The position numbers and the translations under genes were made by a program. Source: Planctomycetota bacterium (lineage in GTDB: Bacteria; Planctomycetota; MHYJ01; WSZJ01). Taken from it: a DNA stretch of 56,320 nucleotides. Position 1 is the first letter of the stretch; the number at the start of each line of letters is the position of its first letter. The DNA lies in NCBI GenBank assembly GCA_038060895.1, contig JBBTCT010000032.1, forward strand, positions 1 through 56,320, read 5' to 3'. A model generated the notes under the pieces. That model was not told where the DNA came from and did no database searches. It was given only the letters and a program-made list of their open reading frames with translations. Positions 11,296-50,646 of this stretch are shown one piece after another.

Positions 11296-14232
11296 ATGAA
11301 ATTCCTGCGACCTCTGCTTTCCGGCGCCCTCGCCGCCTCCACGCTCTTCTGCTCCACGGCCTGGGCCAAAGGCGACGACGTCGATTTTGCCCGCGCTCTC
11401 GTCCAGTGGGGTTACGTGGACCTCGCCAACGAGTACTGCAAACGCATCGAGAACGACCCCAAGACCTCCGCCGAAGACAAGGCGGGAGTCCAGCTCATCC
11501 TCGCCGAAATCTTCGCGAAGACGGCCACCCAGAAGGAAGACTCGACCGCGGCCGCCGAGGACCTGGACAAGGCCATCAAGGTCCTCGAAGACTTCATCCG
11601 GATGAATGGCACCCACTCGCGTGCCCCCGAAGCGAAGTTCACGATCGGCGTGCTGCTTCGGCAAAAGGGGGACATGATCGTCGCGCAGCTCAGGAAGACG
11701 CAGGACGCCACGGCGAAGTCCGCGCTCATCTCCTCGGGCGACACGGCTTTCAAAACGGCTGAAACTTACTTCGAAGCCCTTCAGAAAGAATACAAGGCGA
11801 TGCGGGACACCTGGCGGCAGAAGACGGACGGCCGCCAGCCGACGGTGGAAGAAGCAAAGGAGGAAGAGGACATCAGCTACAACCTGATGGACTCGATTTA
11901 CAACGTGCCGCGCACCCTGTACTCGCACTGCCTGCTCTACGAGTCGGGAAGCAAGGAGAAGAAGGAACTCGCCGATAAGGCCGTCCTTGCATTCATGGAC
12001 TTCGAGCTCGACTACCAGGACCGCATGAAGGCGTTCGAGTCGTCCGTGTTCTGGGCGCTCACCTACAAGGAACTGGGCGATTTCGATAAGGTCTACCAGC
12101 GCTTCGACTTCACGATCTCGCTAAAAGACCTGATCCCTCCCCCGCTTCCCGACGACGCCCGCGAGGTGATCCTGACGGGGTTCTACTACAAGGCGACCAC
12201 CTACAACGAGCAGCGCAAGTTCCAGGATGCGATCAAGACGATTGACGACATGCTGAAGCTGATCAAGGACGCCTCGAAGGACCGGATCGGCGTCTCGGCG
12301 GTCCTTGTGAAAGGAGATGCTCTCGTCGGAAAGGGCAGCAAGGACGAGGCGATCAAGATGGGGTCGGACCTGATGAAGCAGATCACGGCCCCGGGGCTTC
12401 AGGCGGTGGTGCGCAAGAAAATCTCCGACTGGTCAAACCAGGCTGGAGGCGGCGCCAACGTCGGCCTGTACCTGATCCGGTATGAATCCGCGATGGACGA
12501 GGACAACTACATTGCCGCCATTTCGGCTCTCCAGGGAGCGATTGCGGCCGCTGAGTCCGCGGACTCCCCCGAAGCCGTGCCGGACCTGCTGTGGAAGATG
12601 GGCTCCGTCTTCGAGCGCCTGGAGCGGCCTTACGACGCGGTGATCTGCTACGAGACGATCGCCAACGACCACCAGGCGAACGCGAAGGCAAAGTCGGCGG
12701 AAGCGGCGTTCCGGGCGGCGCAGGTGTGGAACGTGATTGCGGCCGCCATCGGCGAGGAGAAGTCGTGGGAGAAGGACCAGATCACGAAGAACCTGACGCT
12801 GCTGACGACAAAGTGGCCGAACGACCCGAACTCCAAGAACGCGCAGTACCTCGTCGCCGACGCCCTGGCGATCAAGGGAAAGTTCGAGGATGCCGCGAGG
12901 GAATACGCGAAGGTGCCGGAGGAAGCGAAATACTACGAGCAGGCGATCGTGATGGCGGGCAAGTGCTACTACGACCTGGCGAAGAAGCAGTGGGCAGCCG
13001 GTCAGAAGGACAAGAAGACGACGGACATGCTCGACCAGGCCGAAGCGTCCTTCACCAAGTACCTCGCATACGTGAAGAAGGGCCCTTCGAAGAATGAGGA
13101 CATCCAGAAGAACCGGCCGATGGTCGAGGTCTTCTGCAAGCAGGCGCTTGCAAACGTGCTGATGCACGAGGCGAAGAAGAAGTACACGGAGGCGATCAAG
13201 GTTCTCGACGACATTGAGAACCCGGTCGAGGGGACGGACGGCAAGAAGGCCGAAGTGCCGGACGAAGTGCGCAAGAAAGTCTGGCGGCAGAAGATCACGG
13301 CCTACCTCGCCACCAACGACACGCCGAAGGCGGTTGAATACACCGAAAAGCTCCTCGAGAAGTTCCGGGCTGCCGCCGTGACGGTCGAAGCCTGCCAGCT
13401 CGTCGGCGCGAAGTGCGACGAAGAGGCCGAGAAGATCGCGGGCGAGAATCCGACGGCGGAGACGATCACCGCCGATGCGATGAAACTGTGGGAGCTCGCG
13501 GCCAAGTACTACGCGAACTGGATTCACAGCGGCATTGAGGCGAAGCAGAAAATCAAGATCGAGGACGCGCTTCAGGTCGCCGACCGCATCTACAACCTCG
13601 GCCTTCTCATCAATCAGATCGACGACAAGAAGTCATTCACCAGCTACGAGCTCGACAAGCTCAAGAAGCCGGGGATTTTCATCGACGCCGCCCGCATTTA
13701 CGACCCGATCGCGAACGAACAACTCGGGCGCCCCCAGGGCGTCGACACCAGCAAACTCCTCCTGAAACTCGCCTGGTGCCATGACTTCGCCCAGAACTGG
13801 GTCGGCGCGCGCGACTCGTACGAAGCCCTGATCGAATCCGAGCGGCTCCGCAACAAGGGAGCCCAGACGCTGAACGACGCTGTGCTGAAGGCAAAGAAGT
13901 GGCTTTTCGTCGCCTACGAAGAGCTCGGGCACGTCTACCTCAAGCTGGCGGCCAAGGGCGACAACAAGGCCAACTCGCTGCAGGAGGCGTACACGATCTT
14001 CGCCAACGTCGTGAGCAAGTCAGAGAAGGACACGGAGGCCTGGTGGCGCGCGAAGTACCTGGTCATCAAGATCCTGTTCGAAAAGGGCGGCCAGAACGAC
14101 TACGAGATGGCGCTGATGGGGATCAAGGACATGCGCGCCAACTACCCGAACTGGGACGAGGACAAGTTCAAGATGCGGGACCGGTGGATTGATATTGAGA
14201 AGGCGATCCTGGACCGCGCGCCGAAGAAGTAG
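11296..14232 (+). CDS. Large exported TPR/helical-repeat protein, paralog 1 (978 aa)
   Basis: Signal peptide ending AWA, all-helical TPR-like repeats, strong coding-type codon bias. Confidence 0.85.
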   Translation: MKFLRPLLSGALAASTLFCSTAWAKGDDVDFARALVQWGYVDLANEYCKRIENDPKTSAEDKAGVQLILAEIFAKTATQKEDSTAAAEDLDKAIKVLEDFIRMNGTHSRAPEAKFTIGVLLRQKGDMIVAQLRKTQDATAKSALISSGDTAFKTAETYFEALQKEYKAMRDTWRQKTDGRQPTVEEAKEEEDISYNLMDSIYNVPRTLYSHCLLYESGSKEKKELADKAVLAFMDFELDYQDRMKAFESSVFWALTYKELGDFDKVYQRFDFTISLKDLIPPPLPDDAREVILTGFYYKATTYNEQRKFQDAIKTIDDMLKLIKDASKDRIGVSAVLVKGDALVGKGSKDEAIKMGSDLMKQITAPGLQAVVRKKISDWSNQAGGGANVGLYLIRYESAMDEDNYIAAISALQGAIAAAESADSPEAVPDLLWKMGSVFERLERPYDAVICYETIANDHQANAKAKSAEAAFRAAQVWNVIAAAIGEEKSWEKDQITKNLTLLTTKWPNDPNSKNAQYLVADALAIKGKFEDAAREYAKVPEEAKYYEQAIVMAGKCYYDLAKKQWAAGQKDKKTTDMLDQAEASFTKYLAYVKKGPSKNEDIQKNRPMVEVFCKQALANVLMHEAKKKYTEAIKVLDDIENPVEGTDGKKAEVPDEVRKKVWRQKITAYLATNDTPKAVEYTEKLLEKFRAAAVTVEACQLVGAKCDEEAEKIAGENPTAETITADAMKLWELAAKYYANWIHSGIEAKQKIKIEDALQVADRIYNLGLLINQIDDKKSFTSYELDKLKKPGIFIDAARIYDPIANEQLGRPQGVDTSKLLLKLAWCHDFAQNWVGARDSYEALIESERLRNKGAQTLNDAVLKAKKWLFVAYEELGHVYLKLAAKGDNKANSLQEAYTIFANVVSKSEKDTEAWWRAKYLVIKILFEKGGQNDYEMALMGIKDMRANYPNWDEDKFKMRDRWIDIEKAILDRAPKK

Positions 14233-37580: not shown

Positions 37581-38735
37581 TTATTTCGGTTTGACGTCCT
37601 TGCCGTTGATGCCGATGCGGGACCCCGACTTGATCTGAAGCGGCACCATCTCGCCGTCGCGGTTCAGCATCACTTCCACGATCGTCCCGGCGGGAATTGT
37701 GTCCATCTGCTCCTGTAGCGCTTCGAGGTCCTTCACGGGACTGCCGTTGTAGGACGTGATGATGTCTCCCCTCTTGATTCCGACGTTGTCGGCCTGCGAG
37801 TTGGGGACCGCGAGTGAAACGAAGATTCCCTCGACCGGAGGCTTGAGGGCGATCATGGCAATCGCCGCTTCCTTGCGGAGGATCTCGTTGTCCCCGCGAG
37901 CGAGAGCTTCGAGCGAAGCCAGGGAGTCCGCCGAGCCAATCTTCACGAGCGCGTCGAGCATCGAGGTCAGCATCCGCGGGTTTTCCGCATATTGCGGCAG
38001 CAGCGAGGCGATGTCCTTTTCCATTCCTGCCTTCGAGACGCCTTCCATGTTCTCGGCGATCGCGCGCAGCACCTCGGAACTCTTTTCGGTCTTGAGGAGT
38101 TCCATGAAGAGCTTCCCTGGCTCCATTTCTGGGTGATAGGAGAGCCCGTAAGCCGAGCCTGCCCGGAAACCCGCGGCGATGTCGTCGCCCTGCATGAGGC
38201 CCCAGGCCATGACCGGAAGCATCGGCCCGTCAAAGGCCATCCAGAACTCGTTCCGCGAGAGGCCGAGCTCGTTTTTTCCGCCTTCCACGTCCTGCGCGAT
38301 GATTCCGCTGATCTCGATGGCGGTCTTGTAGCCGATCGGGCCGAGCGCGGCGATTTCCTGCATCAGCTTGATCAGGGCCTTGCCGTCCTTCTTCGCGACG
38401 ATGTCGGGGATCTGTGCGCGCAGTTCCTCCAGCCTCGCCTTCGCTTCTTCCGGCGTGAGCTCCTTCTTCCCGTCCACAACCGAAGACTTGCCGCTTCCCG
38501 CCTTTTCGAGCTTTGCGATCTTCTCTTTCAGCTTCGTGACCTCCGCCGTCCTTTCCGCGGCACGCTTCTCCGCTTCCGCAGTGCGCCGGTCTGACTCGGC
38601 GAGTGCGTCAGCGGAAGGAAGGGAGGCCGGAGCGGGCGCCACGGCAGGCGGTTCGTGCCTGCGGCGCTCGAAAAGCACCCCGGCGAGTGAGCCGAGCACG
38701 AAGGCGATCAGGGCTGCCGGAAGGGCGACTTTCAT
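37581..38735 (-). CDS. Membrane-anchored coiled-coil/HEAT/PDZ protein, copy 1
   Basis: N-terminal TM, KKDG..LI.LM.E.A.LG..GY motif, C-terminal PDZ (SQA..VGIKRGDII.SYNG). Confidence 0.82.
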   Translation of the reverse strand: MKVALPAALIAFVLGSLAGVLFERRRHEPPAVAPAPASLPSADALAESDRRTAEAEKRAAERTAEVTKLKEKIAKLEKAGSGKSSVVDGKKELTPEEAKARLEELRAQIPDIVAKKDGKALIKLMQEIAALGPIGYKTAIEISGIIAQDVEGGKNELGLSRNEFWMAFDGPMLPVMAWGLMQGDDIAAGFRAGSAYGLSYHPEMEPGKLFMELLKTEKSSEVLRAIAENMEGVSKAGMEKDIASLLPQYAENPRMLTSMLDALVKIGSADSLASLEALARGDNEILRKEAAIAMIALKPPVEGIFVSLAVPNSQADNVGIKRGDIITSYNGSPVKDLEALQEQMDTIPAGTIVEVMLNRDGEMVPLQIKSGSRIGINGKDVKPK

Positions 38736-38814: not shown

Positions 38815-39939
38815 CTACGGCTTCACAGGTTTGCCGTCGATCCCGATCCAGTCACCGGTGATCTGCACGGGGACCAGGGTGCCGCCACGGTTCACCATGA
38901 CTGGCACGAGTTCCTTGTCGGGCTTCGCCTGCACCGCTTTCCGAAGCTGGTCCAGTGTCTTCATCTCGACGCCGTCGTAGGACATCAGGATGTCGCCCTT
39001 CTGAAGTCCGACCTTTTGCGCCTGCGACTTCGGCTGGGTGCTCGTGATCATGATCCCCGGCGCCGGCGGCGCGTGCTCGATGATGGCGATTTCCAGCGCC
39101 GCCGCCAGCGCCGGCGAGGCGTCGAGCTGCAGATTGCGAAGCGCCGAGCCGCTTTCGGGGGTGTGCAGGTCGACCAGCGCCTGCAGCATCGGCTGAAACG
39201 TCTGGGGACGCTTCTCGTTCCCGCGGATCGCCGCCTCCAGATCCCCGACCATCTCCGGCTTCGCCATGCGCGCCAGGTAGCCCGCCAGTGCCTGGGCCAG
39301 CCCCGGGTCCTTTTCCTTCGCCATCGCTTCCAGGAAAATCGGAGCGGCATCGACATCGCTCACCCAGTAGAGCATGTGCACGGATTTGGCGCGGAACCAG
39401 GGTGAAGCATCCGCCGCGTTGGCAAGCGCCCAGGTCATGAGCGGGACCATCGTGCCGCTCCAGGCCTTGTTGAACTGCACCTTGTCGATCCCGAAGGCTT
39501 CGTTCCCGTTTCCGAATTCCTTCCGGAAAATCTCGGCCACATCCATCGCGTCGCGGTACCCCTCGGGACCGAGAGCTGCGAGTTCTTTCATGATCGCGAT
39601 CAGTCCCGCGCCGTCCTTTTTCTCGACCAGCTCGGGAATCTTCGCGCGCAGGTCCCGCACCCTCGCCTCCACGCTCGCAGGATCCAGCGGCGCGGACTGC
39701 CCTCCCTTCAGCGAAGCCACCTGTGAATTCAGCGCCCGCACCTGGTCCTTCGCAGTCTGCAACTCGGCTTCGACATCGCGCGGCGGTCCTTCGGGCTCGA
39801 GCACATCCTCGCCGTTCGCGGAGGCGCGCCCGGCAGAAGAGGCGCCCGTCGCAGTCCCGGCACGATGGCGCTCCAACCACACGCCGGCGGCGAGGCCGGC
39901 ACCAAGGCAAAGCAGGCAGACGAGGGCTGCGGACTTCAT
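38815..39939 (-). CDS. Membrane-anchored coiled-coil/HEAT/PDZ protein, copy 2
   Basis: Same architecture (KKDGAGLIAIMKELAALGPEGY, SQAQKVGLQKGDIL). Confidence 0.82.
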   Translation of the reverse strand: MKSAALVCLLCLGAGLAAGVWLERHRAGTATGASSAGRASANGEDVLEPEGPPRDVEAELQTAKDQVRALNSQVASLKGGQSAPLDPASVEARVRDLRAKIPELVEKKDGAGLIAIMKELAALGPEGYRDAMDVAEIFRKEFGNGNEAFGIDKVQFNKAWSGTMVPLMTWALANAADASPWFRAKSVHMLYWVSDVDAAPIFLEAMAKEKDPGLAQALAGYLARMAKPEMVGDLEAAIRGNEKRPQTFQPMLQALVDLHTPESGSALRNLQLDASPALAAALEIAIIEHAPPAPGIMITSTQPKSQAQKVGLQKGDILMSYDGVEMKTLDQLRKAVQAKPDKELVPVMVNRGGTLVPVQITGDWIGIDGKPVKP

Positions 39940-39983: not shown

Positions 39984-41099
39984 CTACCGGCTCGGTTTGA
40001 CCTCGTCCCCGTAAATTCCGATCTGCTGGCCGCGGATCTGGAGCGTCACCGTTTCGTTCCCGCGCTGGACCACGATCGGGACGAGCTGGTCGACGCTCGT
40101 CTTCTGGACTTCTTCGCGCAGCTTGTCGAAGGCCGTCACCGGCGCCCCGTTGTAGCTGAGGACGAGGTCGCCGCGATGCAGCCCGGCCGATTCCGCCTGC
40201 CCCTTCGGCACCAGCCCCGAGATCAGGACGCCCGGCGCGGGCGGGTCCAGACGGATCAACTGATACGCTCCTTCATCCCGCAGGTCGGGATTCTGCGAAG
40301 CGGCCAGTTCGCGCAGCCCGGCGAGAGCCTCGGGAGTTCCGAGGTTCGCCAGCGCTTCGACCAGGGTTCGCGCGGCCTGCCCAGTCTGCCCGCGCGCGGC
40401 GTCGAGCAACGATGCTTCGGATCCAGCACGGGTCATCGAGTAGAGGCCGCCGGCGAGGGAAGCGGCGACGTTCGGGTCCTTCTCCGAACGCAGCAGTTCG
40501 CCGAACAGCACTGCGGGGTCGGGCTCGAGCTGAGCCATCATGGGCCCGATCGCGCGAAGGCGCATCCAGGCCGAAGCGAGTTCCGGGTGGCGGAGAGCCC
40601 ATTCGAGCATCCCCGGGGACGATTGGAGGATATTGTGGAGGGCCGAAGCGCTGGCGCCGAATTCGCCGCCGCCGGATTCCACATCGCGCCCCAGGACTTC
40701 GGCGATTTTGAGCGCCGCGACGTATCCGGCCTCTCCCAGGAGCGCAAGCTCCCGCATCAGTTTCAGGAGGCCGTGACCGTCTTTCCGGGCGAGCAGCCCC
40801 GGGATCTCCTTAATGAGCGCCTTGGCCCGTCTTTCGGCATCCTCGGCGGACGGCGCACCGCCCTTTTCAAGCAGAGCGATCTTCTCGCGAAGGACGCGAT
40901 TCTCCTCCTCGAGTCGCCGGCGGGGATCGTCCGTGGAAGTCAGAGTACCGGTCGGTTCAGCGGAGGGAGAAGCGGCCGTCGGACCTGCGGCGGGCGTCTC
41001 GGGAACCGGCGAAGGGGACTTGCGCTTCCCCGAAGCGGCGACGCCAAATACGGCGCCCAGAATGAACGAAACGAGAACGGCCGGCAGAAGGGTCTTCAT
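39984..41099 (-). CDS. Membrane-anchored coiled-coil/HEAT/PDZ protein, copy 3
   Basis: Same architecture (RKDGHGLLKLMRELALLGEAGY, GQAESAGLHRGDLV). Start ATG 41099. Confidence 0.82.
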   Translation of the reverse strand: MKTLLPAVLVSFILGAVFGVAASGKRKSPSPVPETPAAGPTAASPSAEPTGTLTSTDDPRRRLEEENRVLREKIALLEKGGAPSAEDAERRAKALIKEIPGLLARKDGHGLLKLMRELALLGEAGYVAALKIAEVLGRDVESGGGEFGASASALHNILQSSPGMLEWALRHPELASAWMRLRAIGPMMAQLEPDPAVLFGELLRSEKDPNVAASLAGGLYSMTRAGSEASLLDAARGQTGQAARTLVEALANLGTPEALAGLRELAASQNPDLRDEGAYQLIRLDPPAPGVLISGLVPKGQAESAGLHRGDLVLSYNGAPVTAFDKLREEVQKTSVDQLVPIVVQRGNETVTLQIRGQQIGIYGDEVKPSR

Positions 41100-41198
41100 C
41101 GGCGCTGGATCCTCCGGGTGCAACGGGGGCCTGAGGGTTCATCGCCTGAGGACGCAAAGGGTTCGCCGAATCCCATCCCGCACGGCTACGATTCCGCC

Positions 41199-46185: not shown

Positions 46186-46267
46186 GCGCGGTCGCGCCGT
46201 TGTCTTCTGCGAACCCTTGACGCTCCCCACGCGTTGATTCTGCATTCCCGAATCGGAGGGTGAAACA

Positions 46268-46492
46268 ATGACGGCGAAGAACACGGATGTCCGCTTCCAC
46301 GTCCGCTTCGACGGCCGCTCCTACGACCTCGAGCCGTCGCAGCTCGGCGTCGCCGTCGATGCCGCGGACGTGGACATCCACGAAGCGCTGGCCCGGCACT
46401 TCGACGTAGCGCGGCAGACGTTCCGGGCCTACGTCGTCGAGCGGCACCGGAACGGGTCGGTGACCGTTCGTCCGGAAGCCGTTTTCGGGTAG
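46268..46492 (+). CDS. Small protein, putative ubiquitin-like (beta-grasp) modifier
   Basis: 74 aa with a GGAGG RBS. Beta-beta-alpha-beta-beta pattern (FHVRF/SYDL/IHEALARHF/YVVE/VTVR), C-terminal ..EAVFG, linked to E1 and JAB genes. The fold is inferred. Confidence 0.65.
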   Translation: MTAKNTDVRFHVRFDGRSYDLEPSQLGVAVDAADVDIHEALARHFDVARQTFRAYVVERHRNGSVTVRPEAVFG

Positions 46493-46581
46493 CGGCGTCG
46501 TGCCTGCCCTGGGGCAGACGCCGCTGGCCTGAAAACCCTGAAAACCGCGAACTTTCCGCAGGCTGGCCCGATGAAAGTTCG

Positions 46582-46695
46582 AAGGGACGGGACGACGCCG
46601 CACCCCCGCCCGGGGCTTACAAACCTCTCCAAAAGGAAAGCATCACAAGCCCCCGGCACTTGCGCGGCGACGTCCCGGCCCCTCGACCGTCCCTT
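46582..46695 (+). ncRNA. Y-RNA-like structured RNA, unit 1
   Basis: GGGACG-A-CGCCG (46589-600) pairs with CGGCG-A-CGTCCC (46665-76). C-rich loop, inner stem GGGGCTT/AAGCCCC, TACAAAC at 46618-24, 3' ACTTG. Confidence 0.65.
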
Positions 46696-46752
46696 TGACA
46701 ACCTGGCGACGTTTTGACGCAGCGCGTCAATCTACCCGGCAGCCGGAACGCC

Positions 46753-46911
46753 CGGGCAACGACTTCGCGGCTCCCCACCTCCGGAGCCTACAAACTGGTA
46801 AACATTCACCGTCAGGTGAAGATGGGGTTCGAATCCCCCCCACGCCTGGGGAGACAGGCACCACAACTGACCGTCAAGCTCCTGTAACTCGAGCCGCGAA
46901 GCCGTTCCCCG
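46753..46911 (+). ncRNA. Y-RNA-like structured RNA, unit 2 (contains a T-arm)
   Basis: CTTCGCGGCTC (46763-73) and GAGCCGCGAAG (46891-901) form a perfect 11-bp stem. Inner GGAGC/GCTCC, TACAAAC at 46789-95, GGGG-TTCGAAT-CCCC at 46824-38, 3' ACTCG. Confidence 0.75.
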
Positions 46912-46915
46912 AAGC

Positions 46916-47040
46916 GCTTCTCTCTGCTCCGCACCCCACCCCGCGAAGCCTACAAACCTCGTTCTCCCCCAGGGGGGAACACCAGTCACTGAAACTGACC
47001 CGTTTTCGAAGCTTCTCAAACTTGTGCGGAGCAGAAAGGC
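46916..47040 (+). ncRNA. Y-RNA-like structured RNA, unit 3
   Basis: TCTGCTCCGCAC (46923-34) and GTGCGGAGCAGA (47024-35) form a perfect 12-bp stem. Inner GAAGC/GCTTC, TACAAAC at 46951-57, 3' ACTTG. Confidence 0.72.
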
Positions 47041-47041
47041 G

Positions 47042-48796
<1,755 letters not shown>

Positions 48797-48802
48797 GTCG
48801 GA

Positions 48803-49627
48803 ATGAAACACCGCGACCTCATCCAGAGGCTGGCTTCCTCCGACCGGGCTTCCCTCGCACGTGAATTTCTGTCCCCGGTCTTCGCCTCGGGACGCGTGAG
48901 GCTGCGTCTCTCCGGCGTCGTCGTCGAGATGCAAATCACGCGCCGTCCAGCCGGCTTCTCCTCGGGCTGGGCCATTCTCCGCCCGACCTCCCCGCGAACA
49001 GCCGAAGTTCTCCGCCCGGCGCCCCTCGCCGAGGTGAAGCGATTCCTCGATCTATTTCCGCGCGCCCGCCTGGTTGCCGCCGCGCTTCACGGCTCCACCT
49101 GGCTCGCGCTTCCGACCGCCGCACCCCAGAAGGGCGTGCGCGTGAAGGGCCTCGCGCCGGTCGCCCTCGCGCCGCGACTCGCGCTGTTCGACACCGCCGT
49201 CACTCGATTCGACGGCTCGCTCTTCCTGTTCGAGTCCGCCGAGCGCGCTTCAACGGCAGGCTGGCTGCGCGCCCAGCTGGAGGCGGGAACGGCGCCGGAC
49301 GGCCTGCGGCGCGCCGGCCTGGTGCCGGCGGAGCGGGAGGCCTATGCGATGCAGTGGAAGCTGCGGGAGGAATTGCGCAAGCCGCCGGACCAGCGTCGGC
49401 TGGAAGAGGCGCTCGGGGCGGCGGACGCGGCGCTGGTGAAGTACTCCGCCCGGTCGGACCAGTTGACGGTGACGTACATCGTGGACGGCCGGGAATTCAC
49501 TTCGATCGTCGAACGCGGCGATCTCACCGTGGTGAGCGCGGGAATCTGCCTTGACGGGACCGACCGCACATTCGACCTGACCTCGCTCGTGTCCGTCATG
49601 CGGGAGGCGCGGCGCCGTGATGAATGA
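48803..49627 (+). CDS. Hypothetical protein with a candidate E2/UBC-like C-terminal domain
   Basis: Co-operonic. Its only Cys lies in SAGICLDG..FDLTSLVSVM, recalling the UBC G-x-ICLD active-site segment. The E2 call is an inference. Confidence 0.55.
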   Translation: MKHRDLIQRLASSDRASLAREFLSPVFASGRVRLRLSGVVVEMQITRRPAGFSSGWAILRPTSPRTAEVLRPAPLAEVKRFLDLFPRARLVAAALHGSTWLALPTAAPQKGVRVKGLAPVALAPRLALFDTAVTRFDGSLFLFESAERASTAGWLRAQLEAGTAPDGLRRAGLVPAEREAYAMQWKLREELRKPPDQRRLEEALGAADAALVKYSARSDQLTVTYIVDGREFTSIVERGDLTVVSAGICLDGTDRTFDLTSLVSVMREARRRDE

Positions 49628-49961
49628 ACGAAGCGCGGTGGTGCTCGCGAGCGGCCGGCTTGTGCAATGGCGCGAAGGAGGACCGGCTCACGTTGAATTC
49701 GACGCGCGCCGGGTCCTGCGCAGGGAGGAATCGAAGGGCGACATCGCCGGGTTTTTCCACACGCATCCGCCCGGCGTCCCCGGGATGAGCGCACGCGACG
49801 GCCGCACGATGCAGGCCTGGGCGCAGTGCTTCGGCCGCCCGCTTCTCTGCGCGATCCGCTGCGGCCGCCGGACCCGCGCGTGGCTGTGCGGCAAGGATGG
49901 CAGCGCGCGGGAGGTCGCCTCCGTTATCCTCAAGGGCGCTTCCATTCAATGGACTCCCTGA
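49620..49961 (+). CDS. JAB/MPN+ (JAMM) metalloprotease
   Basis: N-terminal Glu (NER) and H-T-H-x7-S-x2-D (HTHPPGVPGMSARD). Overlaps both neighbours. Confidence 0.85.
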   Translation: MNERSAVVLASGRLVQWREGGPAHVEFDARRVLRREESKGDIAGFFHTHPPGVPGMSARDGRTMQAWAQCFGRPLLCAIRCGRRTRAWLCGKDGSAREVASVILKGASIQWTP

Positions 49962-50587
49962 ACCACGAGAAAGCCTTCCGCGGTCAGCCGGCGCTCGACC
50001 GGCTGGCGTCCGCGTCGATCGTGGTCTGCGGCGCGGGCGCGGTCGGCTCGAACCTGGTGGACACGCTCGCGCGGCAGGGGGCGAAAAAGCTGCGTGTCAT
50101 CGACCGGGACCGCGTCGAACCGCACAACGTCGCGACGCAGGTCTATCTCGCCGAGCAGGCAGGGCAATGGAAAGTGGAAGCGCTTCGCGACCTGGTCTTC
50201 CGCGCCACGGGCATCGAGATTGACGCGATGCGTCAAGAACTCACGCCGAAGAACGTCGCGAAGCTCCTCGCCAGCGCCGACCTCGTCGTGGACGGCTTCG
50301 ACAATTCCGCTTCACGCCGCGCCGTCACCGAGGCCTGCGCCGCCACCGGCCTTCCCTGCCTGCACGTGGGCCTGAACGCCGGTTACGCCGAGATCCGCTG
50401 GAATGAGCGCTACCGGGTTCCTTCAGACGCGGAGGGCGACGTGTGCGACTACCCGCTCGCCCGCAACCTGGTGCTGATCGTCGCTGGCGCCGCCGCCGAG
50501 ACAGCGCTGAAGTGGCTCTGCGAGAAGCGCAAGGAGGACCGGTCCGTAACGCTGCTGGACCTGCGCATCAATGAAGAAAACGAGTAA
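49949..50587 (+). CDS. ThiF/MoeB/E1-family adenylyltransferase
   Basis: GAGAVG, IDRDRVEPHN..TQ, K, DLVVDGFDN..SR, and a candidate catalytic Cys in DVCDYP. Start ATG 49949. Confidence 0.92.
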   Translation: MDSLNHEKAFRGQPALDRLASASIVVCGAGAVGSNLVDTLARQGAKKLRVIDRDRVEPHNVATQVYLAEQAGQWKVEALRDLVFRATGIEIDAMRQELTPKNVAKLLASADLVVDGFDNSASRRAVTEACAATGLPCLHVGLNAGYAEIRWNERYRVPSDAEGDVCDYPLARNLVLIVAGAAAETALKWLCEKRKEDRSVTLLDLRINEENE

Positions 50588-50646
50588 CCCGGCGAGTTAA
50601 CTCTGCCCGGCCTGCTCCCTACTCCTGACTCAATACTCCCGACTCC

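Follow-up and report, generated by a model that had tools for sequence, protein, structure and literature searches.

An OB-fold protein with one conserved cysteine as a candidate E2-like partner in a putative Ro60-linked ubiquitin-like conjugation module of bacteria and huge phages

The window, by which the whole analysed stretch of 56,320 nt from a Planctomycetota bacterium (contig JBBTCT010000032.1) is meant, carries on its forward strand a module of five genes, which encode a putative ubiquitin-like protein (Ubl), a Ro60-like protein, the candidate protein considered here, a JAB peptidase and an E1. The candidate gene (48803..49627, + strand) is an unannotated open reading frame (ORF) of 274 aa, confirmed both in the ORF list and in its translation. 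It starts 6 nt past the stop codon of the 493-aa Ro60-like gene (47315..48796), the ATG of the JAB gene at 49620 falls within its last 8 nt, and the end of the JAB gene overlaps the start of the E1 gene by 13 nt. These four genes, separated by no more than 6 nt or overlapping, therefore form one tightly packed unit. Each of the five genes is matched in part, within 46200..50600 and at 99–100% identity, by metatranscriptome contigs from three runs on a single aquifer sample, matches for which carry-over of DNA is possible; no contig lies over 49287..49580, which belongs to the part encoding the Cys domain, and this gap proves nothing. Elsewhere in the window, three tandem paralogues of about 375–385 aa (37581..38735, 38815..39939 and 39984..41123, all on the − strand) share similar N-terminal signal or transmembrane segments and similar C-terminal ends (...GI.G..VKP).

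The E1 gene (49949..50587, + strand) encodes a minimal ThiF-type protein of 212 aa (Pfam ThiF, E = 6.6e-33), whose best family matches are the ThiF and MoeB models and which matches the PADLOC model for E1-E2 (Cap2) proteins, PDLC00844, over its E1 part only (E = 1.4e-23). In an alignment of 32 E1 sequences the Gly-rich loop, D115, D118, N119 and C166, the last in the context D-V-C-D-Y-P-L-A-R-N, are invariant, a set of residues that fits thioester chemistry. The JAB/JAMM metallopeptidase (113 aa; 49620..49961, + strand) matches Prok-JAB at E = 0.0015, which is below the cut-off, and the PADLOC JAB models down to E = 9e-4; its translation contains an intact H-x-H-x7-S-x-x-D motif. Of the module's products, PADLOC leaves the candidate and the Ro60-like protein without a match and assigns the E1 and the JAB protein to generic E1-E2 and JAB models only, so that no system model in that collection covers the module. 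A Prok-E2_B match was not found in the window's own genome.

The putative Ubl (74 aa; 46268..46492, + strand) was recognised as a cluster of conserved small ORFs, which, when all ORFs of the loci were clustered, was present in 51 of 81 loci, the window included. It ends in R-P-E-A-V-F-G directly at the stop codon. The family ends in R-P-E-A-V-[FY]-G, 32 of the 33 aligned proteins stopping right after the Gly, and H11, R13, G16, S18, R68, P69, A71 and G74 are invariant in the alignment. No match to it was obtained in Pfam or PHROG, and no significant one among PDB sequences. We take it to be the ubiquitin-like protein of the cascade, with a predicted beta-grasp fold. Since the protein ends at its Gly before the stop codon, it would need no processing.

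The neighbour upstream of the candidate (+ strand) has TROVE-like repeats and a vWA domain, and is, judging from its family profile, a divergent Ro60. When that profile was run against the PDB, it matched Ro60 (9nen_A, E = 1.1e-5, query 191–437), the TROVE-domain proteins 9l5y and 9kop (E = 4.2e-5), the entry 1yvp (E = 0.0033) and Rsr (2nvo, E = 0.085). Among 24 family members, Pfam vWA_Ro60 matches 10 and VWA_2 matches 14; the window's protein taken alone gives sub-threshold Pfam vWA matches only, and the Pfam TROVE model does not match it. It also matches PHROG 850, 'RNA-binding protein' (E = 1.7e-6).

Two weak RNA matches, both on the + strand, lie between the Ubl and Ro60-like genes (46493..47314). 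A tRNA-like element at 46792..46863 is matched by Rfam Tymo_tRNA-like (25.8 bits, E = 0.038) together with a tmRNA 3' end at 46824..46838, both below their gathering scores, and ARAGORN reports no tRNA at this place. A YrlA-like or tRNA-like element at 47101..47188, upstream of the Ro60-like gene, scores 34.9 bits against Rfam YrlA (E = 9.1e-5), for which the gathering score is 69, and a tmRNA 3' end match at 47107..47124 (E = 5.5e-4) is likewise below its gathering score. Related loci have, beside the Ubl gene, tRNA arrays or interrupted tRNA-like matches of about 162 nt that exceed the Rfam gathering score; RNA-bearing regions of this kind are L035 953..1675 (nine tRNAs), L006 3068..3229, L023 3452..3614, L051 2559..3087 and L077 1007..2700. 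It is probable that these tRNA-like and YrlA-like RNAs serve the Ro60-like protein as Y RNA-like partners. In the Nostoc locus L051 there is also a CRISPR array (11451..12804, − strand; Rfam CRISPR-DR5, 19 repeats) about 4 kb downstream of the module.

The first-pass annotation had described the candidate as an unannotated gene with a single Cys in AGICLDG and without an HPN motif. All of this is seen in the translation: Cys249 is the only Cys in the 274 aa, in the context S-A-G-I-C-L-D-G, its codon is TGC (49547..49549, + strand), which is the proposed thioester site, and HPN does not occur. The gene is, moreover, a real and conserved one. A word-indexed search gave 42 homologues at E ≤ 0.001, all unnamed or 'hypothetical' and the majority from Planctomycetota MAGs. 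A genome scan with one genome per species, seeded with a 10-sequence alignment, gave 319 species genomes encoding a relative, of which the best 80 loci were retained. The taxa include Planctomycetota, Chloroflexota, Cyanobacteria (Nostoc, Anabaena, Microseira), Melainabacteria/Obscuribacterales, Abditibacteriota, Myxococcota and Desulfobacterota. When a profile built from the C-terminal 105 aa was applied to 1.84 billion representatives of 50%-identity clusters, it matched 997 representatives at E ≤ 0.001 and 539 at E ≤ 1e-10. The conservation of the family is thus far beyond chance.

Invariance of the Cys among homologues had been named as a check on the earlier annotation, and it is borne out in each set of sequences. 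C249 is kept in 40 of 40 aligned homologues (the short fragments P0006 and P0042 having been omitted from the 42), in 80 of 80 bacterial loci (79 as G-[IV]-C-L and L033 as G-L-C-L), in 26 of 26 viral loci, and in 145 of 146 further representatives, namely the best 150 of the 997 minus those already aligned. The exception, P0082, has Phe at this position; it is an N-terminally truncated metagenomic fragment with a low-complexity Arg/Glu/Lys tail, and is possibly a pseudogene or an assembly error. The counts from the loci are not fully independent of the motif, because the bacterial and viral loci were fetched with the peptide pattern FDL..SLV..V, and the viral loci also with AGICL.., and these patterns sit in or beside it. 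The counts from the 42-homologue search, the 40-sequence alignment and the 997-representative profile search involve no selection by motif and are less biased. In the 40-sequence alignment the invariant positions are F129, G138, G247, C249, L250, D254, F257, D258, L259, V263 and V265; nine of these eleven fall in the Cys loop and the helix that follows it, and no His or Asn is invariant. The pattern G-[IVL]-C-L-[SDA] around Cys249 presumably resembles the surroundings of the active-site Cys in canonical E2s.

The linkage of the candidate to the other genes was assessed by tblastn of the window's proteins on 80 bacterial and 26 viral loci. Among bacterial loci having 2.5 kb of flank or more, 61 of 64 have an E1 gene downstream of the candidate and on its strand, at a median gap of 185 nt; so do all 23 viral loci with enough flank. 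Of the bacterial loci that extend 5 kb or more upstream, 47 of 59 contain the Ro60-like gene, as do 23 of 24 viral loci. Over all 80 bacterial loci, within the flanking sequence available for each, the candidate co-occurs with E1 in 74, with the Ro60-like gene in 61, with the Ubl in 50 and with JAB in 33; among the 26 viral loci the Ubl and JAB genes are each present in 20. The candidate had been placed within a conjugation cascade, and the counts agree with this, the candidate being the tightest partner of E1 in a module that also includes the Ubl, JAB and Ro60-like genes. In three loci (L028, L057 and L066) a candidate homologue occurs with no E1, JAB or Ro60-like gene within 6 kb; the ORFs flanking the homologue in L028 are on the opposite strand.

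The 26 viral loci (L083–L108) are IMG/VR contigs, many of them 200–470 kb, and the complete five-gene module is present in predicted viral contigs of this size. The module is also present in the 595-kb uncultured phage record LR756511.1 (283917..284741). It is therefore common to bacteria and huge phages. The JAB gene is absent from the Nostoc-type loci. A 241-aa conserved protein with no Pfam family is encoded upstream of the Ro60-like gene in L053 (2066..2791) and in 10 other Nostoc-type loci without JAB. Some Chloroflexota and Planctomycetota loci have an extra protein of about 262 aa encoded between the Ro60-like gene and the candidate (L005 5231..6019, L007 4012..4800, L006 4876..5862), which contains a vWA domain (Pfam VWA, E = 2e-10); the L005 protein also has a weak wHTH at its C-terminus. 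A gene of this kind is absent from the window. The Cys domain, or the whole candidate protein, also occurs fused to JAB, in P0150 (396 aa; Prok-JAB, E = 1.9e-7), in P0049 (a weak match) and in a 429-aa ORF of L032 (6001..7287). Longer fused forms (481–2000 aa) were not found in the search, which is weak evidence.

An AlphaFold2 model of the candidate, built on the 40-sequence alignment, has a mean pLDDT of 91.2 and a pTM of 0.79. From N- to C-terminus the protein (48803..49627) comprises a helix, a pair of OB folds, a helical hairpin and a Cys domain. Helix 3–18 is followed by the strands of a first barrel (22–72), helix 75–82, the strands of a second barrel (87–147), helix 152–161 and the hairpin (175–192 and 195–206). 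After these come strands 210–217, 220–227, 230–237 and 242–245, the loop with C249, and helix 259–273. The tandem OB folds correspond to 48866..49243 and the candidate E2-like core (aa 195–273) to 49385..49621, both on the + strand. The strands LVKYS, LTVTYIVDG, FTSIV and LTVV and the helix LTSLVSVMRE, which the first-pass annotation had read from the letters, coincide with elements of the model, and the C-terminal ~80 aa show the order of a UBC core, that is, a helix, a four-strand meander, a Cys loop and a helix. C249 is placed between strand 242–245 and helix 259–273, a position corresponding to that of the reactive Cys of E2s, which follows strand 4 and precedes helix 2. Compared with UBC, the Cys comes just three residues after strand 4, and helices 3 and 4 are missing.

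The N-terminal part, formerly an unknown domain proposed to bind the Ro RNP or the substrate, can now be described as a helix with two OB folds, which fits binding of RNA or of a partner without proving it. The OB folds resemble the RNA-binding S1, CSD and IF1 domains and the ring-forming N-domains of Mpa and PAN, the best match over the full span of both being the inter-domain of Mpa. Like the N-domains of the proteasomal ATPases Mpa, ARC and PAN (a coiled coil with OB folds), the candidate has a helix and then tandem OB folds; unlike Mpa and PAN, it has no fused AAA+ ATPase or P-loop domain and ends at aa 274 after the Cys domain.

The resemblance of the C-terminal domain to E2 was examined with several searches. 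The isolated domain (aa 170–274), modelled on 66 sequences (the window and 65 loci), has a pLDDT of 74.3. Foldseek against the PDB gave it no match at E ≤ 0.001, the best E being 0.26; the canonical E2 HsUbc2b stands at rank 41 (E = 0.98), and four more rows are kinetochore chains, which have RWD folds. The recurrence of UBC/RWD-type rows is suggestive in view of their small share of the PDB, but the scores fall in the range of a common arrangement, where folds that are unrelated score equally well. In sequence, Pfam has no family for the candidate, and none of the 66 C-terminal domains matches an E2, UEV or RWD model even at E ≤ 10; nor does NCBIfam, PADLOC or PHROGs have a family that matches it. 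Comparison of the family with Cap2-type E2-E1 proteins by hhalign gave a probability of 0.15%, a weak negative, as the Cap2 alignment holds seven sequences; the other Prok-E2 families and eukaryote-type UBC were compared by Pfam hmmscan only. The full-family profile gave chance-level matches only among PDB sequences, the best being uL14 at E = 0.027. The ESM Atlas gave no usable feature match (pLDDT 0.50 for its own model, structure rows at TM ≤ 0.33), and among the BFVD viral models Foldseek matched OB or S1-like rows alone, all of low TM. Predicted complexes of the candidate with E1 and with the Ubl had an ipSAE of 0.00 in both runs, values that, with no folded controls beside them, speak neither for nor against binding.

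The candidate may be a non-canonical E2-like thioester carrier of a compact Ubl-conjugation module, a reading to which we give roughly even confidence. The gene context is the strongest argument for it. It is favoured because the linkage to E1 is tight in both bacterial and viral loci, because the rest of the cascade is present while no recognisable E2 is, because one Cys is kept in every set of homologues but for a single sequence, and because fusions to JAB exist. Confidence is held at this level because E1 systems without an E2 exist, E2 homology is undetectable and the fold evidence is weak. Against the reading also stand the absence of any E2, UEV or RWD similarity, the low Foldseek scores, the absence of HPN, the Phe of P0082 and the three loci without E1. 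HPN is also lacking in several accepted non-canonical E2s. The earlier proposal of a highly divergent E2 is thus upheld as to the kept Cys, the partnership with E1 and the order of strands, and is not upheld as to a link to known E2 families by sequence or profile.

What is observed is the domain architecture, the conservation of the Cys, the linkage of the genes and the features of those for E1, Ubl and JAB; the following mechanism is proposed to account for them. The minimal E1 would adenylate the C-terminal Gly of the 74-aa Ubl and take the Ubl onto its Cys166. By transthioesterification the Ubl would then pass from E1 to Cys249, in the loop that leads from strand 4 to the last helix. The N-terminal helix and the two OB folds would hold the enzyme on a partner or target, for which the Ro60-like RNP or RNA-bound proteins seem likeliest. 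The Ubl would finally be transferred to the target, and the JAB peptidase would reverse the mark.

An E2 is not logically required, because Ubl systems with an E1 only are known, such as archaeal SAMP/UbaA and Thermus TtuB/TtuC. The candidate may instead be a non-catalytic adaptor or substrate, the E1 conjugating the Ubl directly as in the SAMP and TtuB systems; its OB folds would bridge E1 to the Ro60-like RNP or to RNA, or it would itself be the main target, and the Cys would have a structural, a regulatory (such as redox) or a docking role. The existence of such systems, the undetectable E2 homology in Pfam, hhalign and Foldseek, the likeness of the tandem OB folds to RNA-binding domains and to the Mpa/PAN N-domains, and the position of the candidate 6 nt behind the Ro60-like gene all agree with this. 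It is less easily reconciled with the retention of the Cys in 145 of 146 representatives and in all loci, across identities from 25% to 100% while the rest of the domain varies, as is typical of a catalytic residue, with the clustering of the invariant positions around the Cys loop, or with a linkage that is tighter to E1 (61/64) than to the Ro60-like gene (47/59). We regard an adaptor or substrate as possible but doubtful.

The best family matches of the E1, ThiF and MoeB, and the small, Gly-ended Ubl would also suit a sulfur relay, in which the Ubl is a sulfur carrier like ThiS, MoaD or TtuB. A persulfide on Cys249 would convert the E1-bound Ubl acyl-adenylate into a thiocarboxylate, which would thiolate a tRNA-like RNA bound by the Ro60-like protein and the OB folds; the module does encode tRNA-like RNAs, and OB folds often bind RNA. 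Such a relay is improbable in our view. Among the conserved neighbour clusters there is no gene for a PP-loop ATPase, rhodanese, cysteine desulfurase or radical-SAM protein, the Cys loop looks unlike the rhodanese and TusA motifs, the Ubl ends in F-G or Y-G and not in G-G, and the presence of JAB (33/80 bacterial loci, 20/26 viral loci) speaks for conjugates with proteins. Least probable by far is a role as a cysteine peptidase in processing or removal of the Ubl. The invariant Cys has invariant D254 and D258 nearby, and many loci lack the JAB gene; however, there is no invariant His or Asn to form a catalytic dyad or triad, the Ubl, Gly-ended in 32 of 33, needs no processing, and no peptidase fold is among the fold-search matches. 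With one conserved Cys and no conserved His, the cysteine-peptidase reading was rejected, as was that of a metal cluster.

The module may be compared with known systems. CBASS (Cap2/Cap3), Bil (BilABCD) and Bub (types I and II) are like it in having a compact operon, an E1 of ThiF type, a small Ubl whose C-terminal Gly is exposed or becomes so by processing, a peptidase for deconjugation (in CBASS and Bil a JAB protein) and a small partner protein beside E1. To our knowledge, these recently described systems were all recognised through detectable E2 homology. In contrast, the partner in the window matches no Prok-E2 or UBC model and has two OB folds, which are not reported for the E2s of those systems, and the module is built on a Ro60-like protein and tRNA-like RNAs rather than on a CD-NTase or known defence genes. 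The Rsr operons known so far are associated with RNA repair by RtcB/RtcA or with PNPase. The accessible text on Bub (10.1101/2024.11.21.623953) shows that there are bacteria with diverged E1/E2 chemistry. In having a YrlA-like or tRNA-like element just upstream, the Ro60-like gene resembles the Ro60/Rsr–Y RNA (YrlA) RNPs; according to the accessible part of Chen et al. 2014 (PMC4201824), YrlA lies beside Ro60 genes in over 250 species of bacteria and phages.

A full-text search of the literature, in which coverage of RNA damage and repair is incomplete, found no operon joining Ro60/TROVE/Rsr with E1/ThiF/Ubl/JAB, and a search on TROVE domains in anti-phage defence found nothing relevant. In the portions available of Kaur et al. 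2020 (PMC7159879) and of Iyer et al. 2021 on jumbo phages (PMC7824862), Ubl systems or TROVE are mentioned separately. A preprint on Asgard viruses (10.1101/2021.07.29.454249) has Ro60 and E1-like genes in one viral genome, with no link drawn between them in its accessible text. What appears to be new here, being absent from the literature searched, is a bacterial and phage operon for putative Ubl conjugation with an unrecognised E2-like partner and a connection to an RNP.

This module brings together an E1, a Ubl ending in Gly and a JAB peptidase with a partner outside all family models and with a Ro60-like protein accompanied by tRNA-like RNAs. Because the module is widespread in bacteria and viral contigs, a role in phage–host conflict or in RNA repair is suggested. 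More tentatively, the candidate could represent a new class of E2-like enzyme, with a minimal Cys-loop domain and two OB folds, which together with the 212-aa E1 and the Ubl ending in Phe/Tyr-Gly would make up a fourth prokaryotic and phage Ubl pathway; wired to a Ro60–Y RNA particle, it might tag a protein or an RNA/RNP under the direction of RNA sensing, in RNA quality control, defence or phage counter-defence. The module is carried by cultured cyanobacteria, namely strains of Nostoc, Anabaena and Microseira. If Cys249 does carry the Ubl, E2 function would be served by a far smaller, or an independently derived, domain than has been thought, and protein tagging would for the first time be connected with the Ro60 RNPs, the bacterial roles of which are still little understood.
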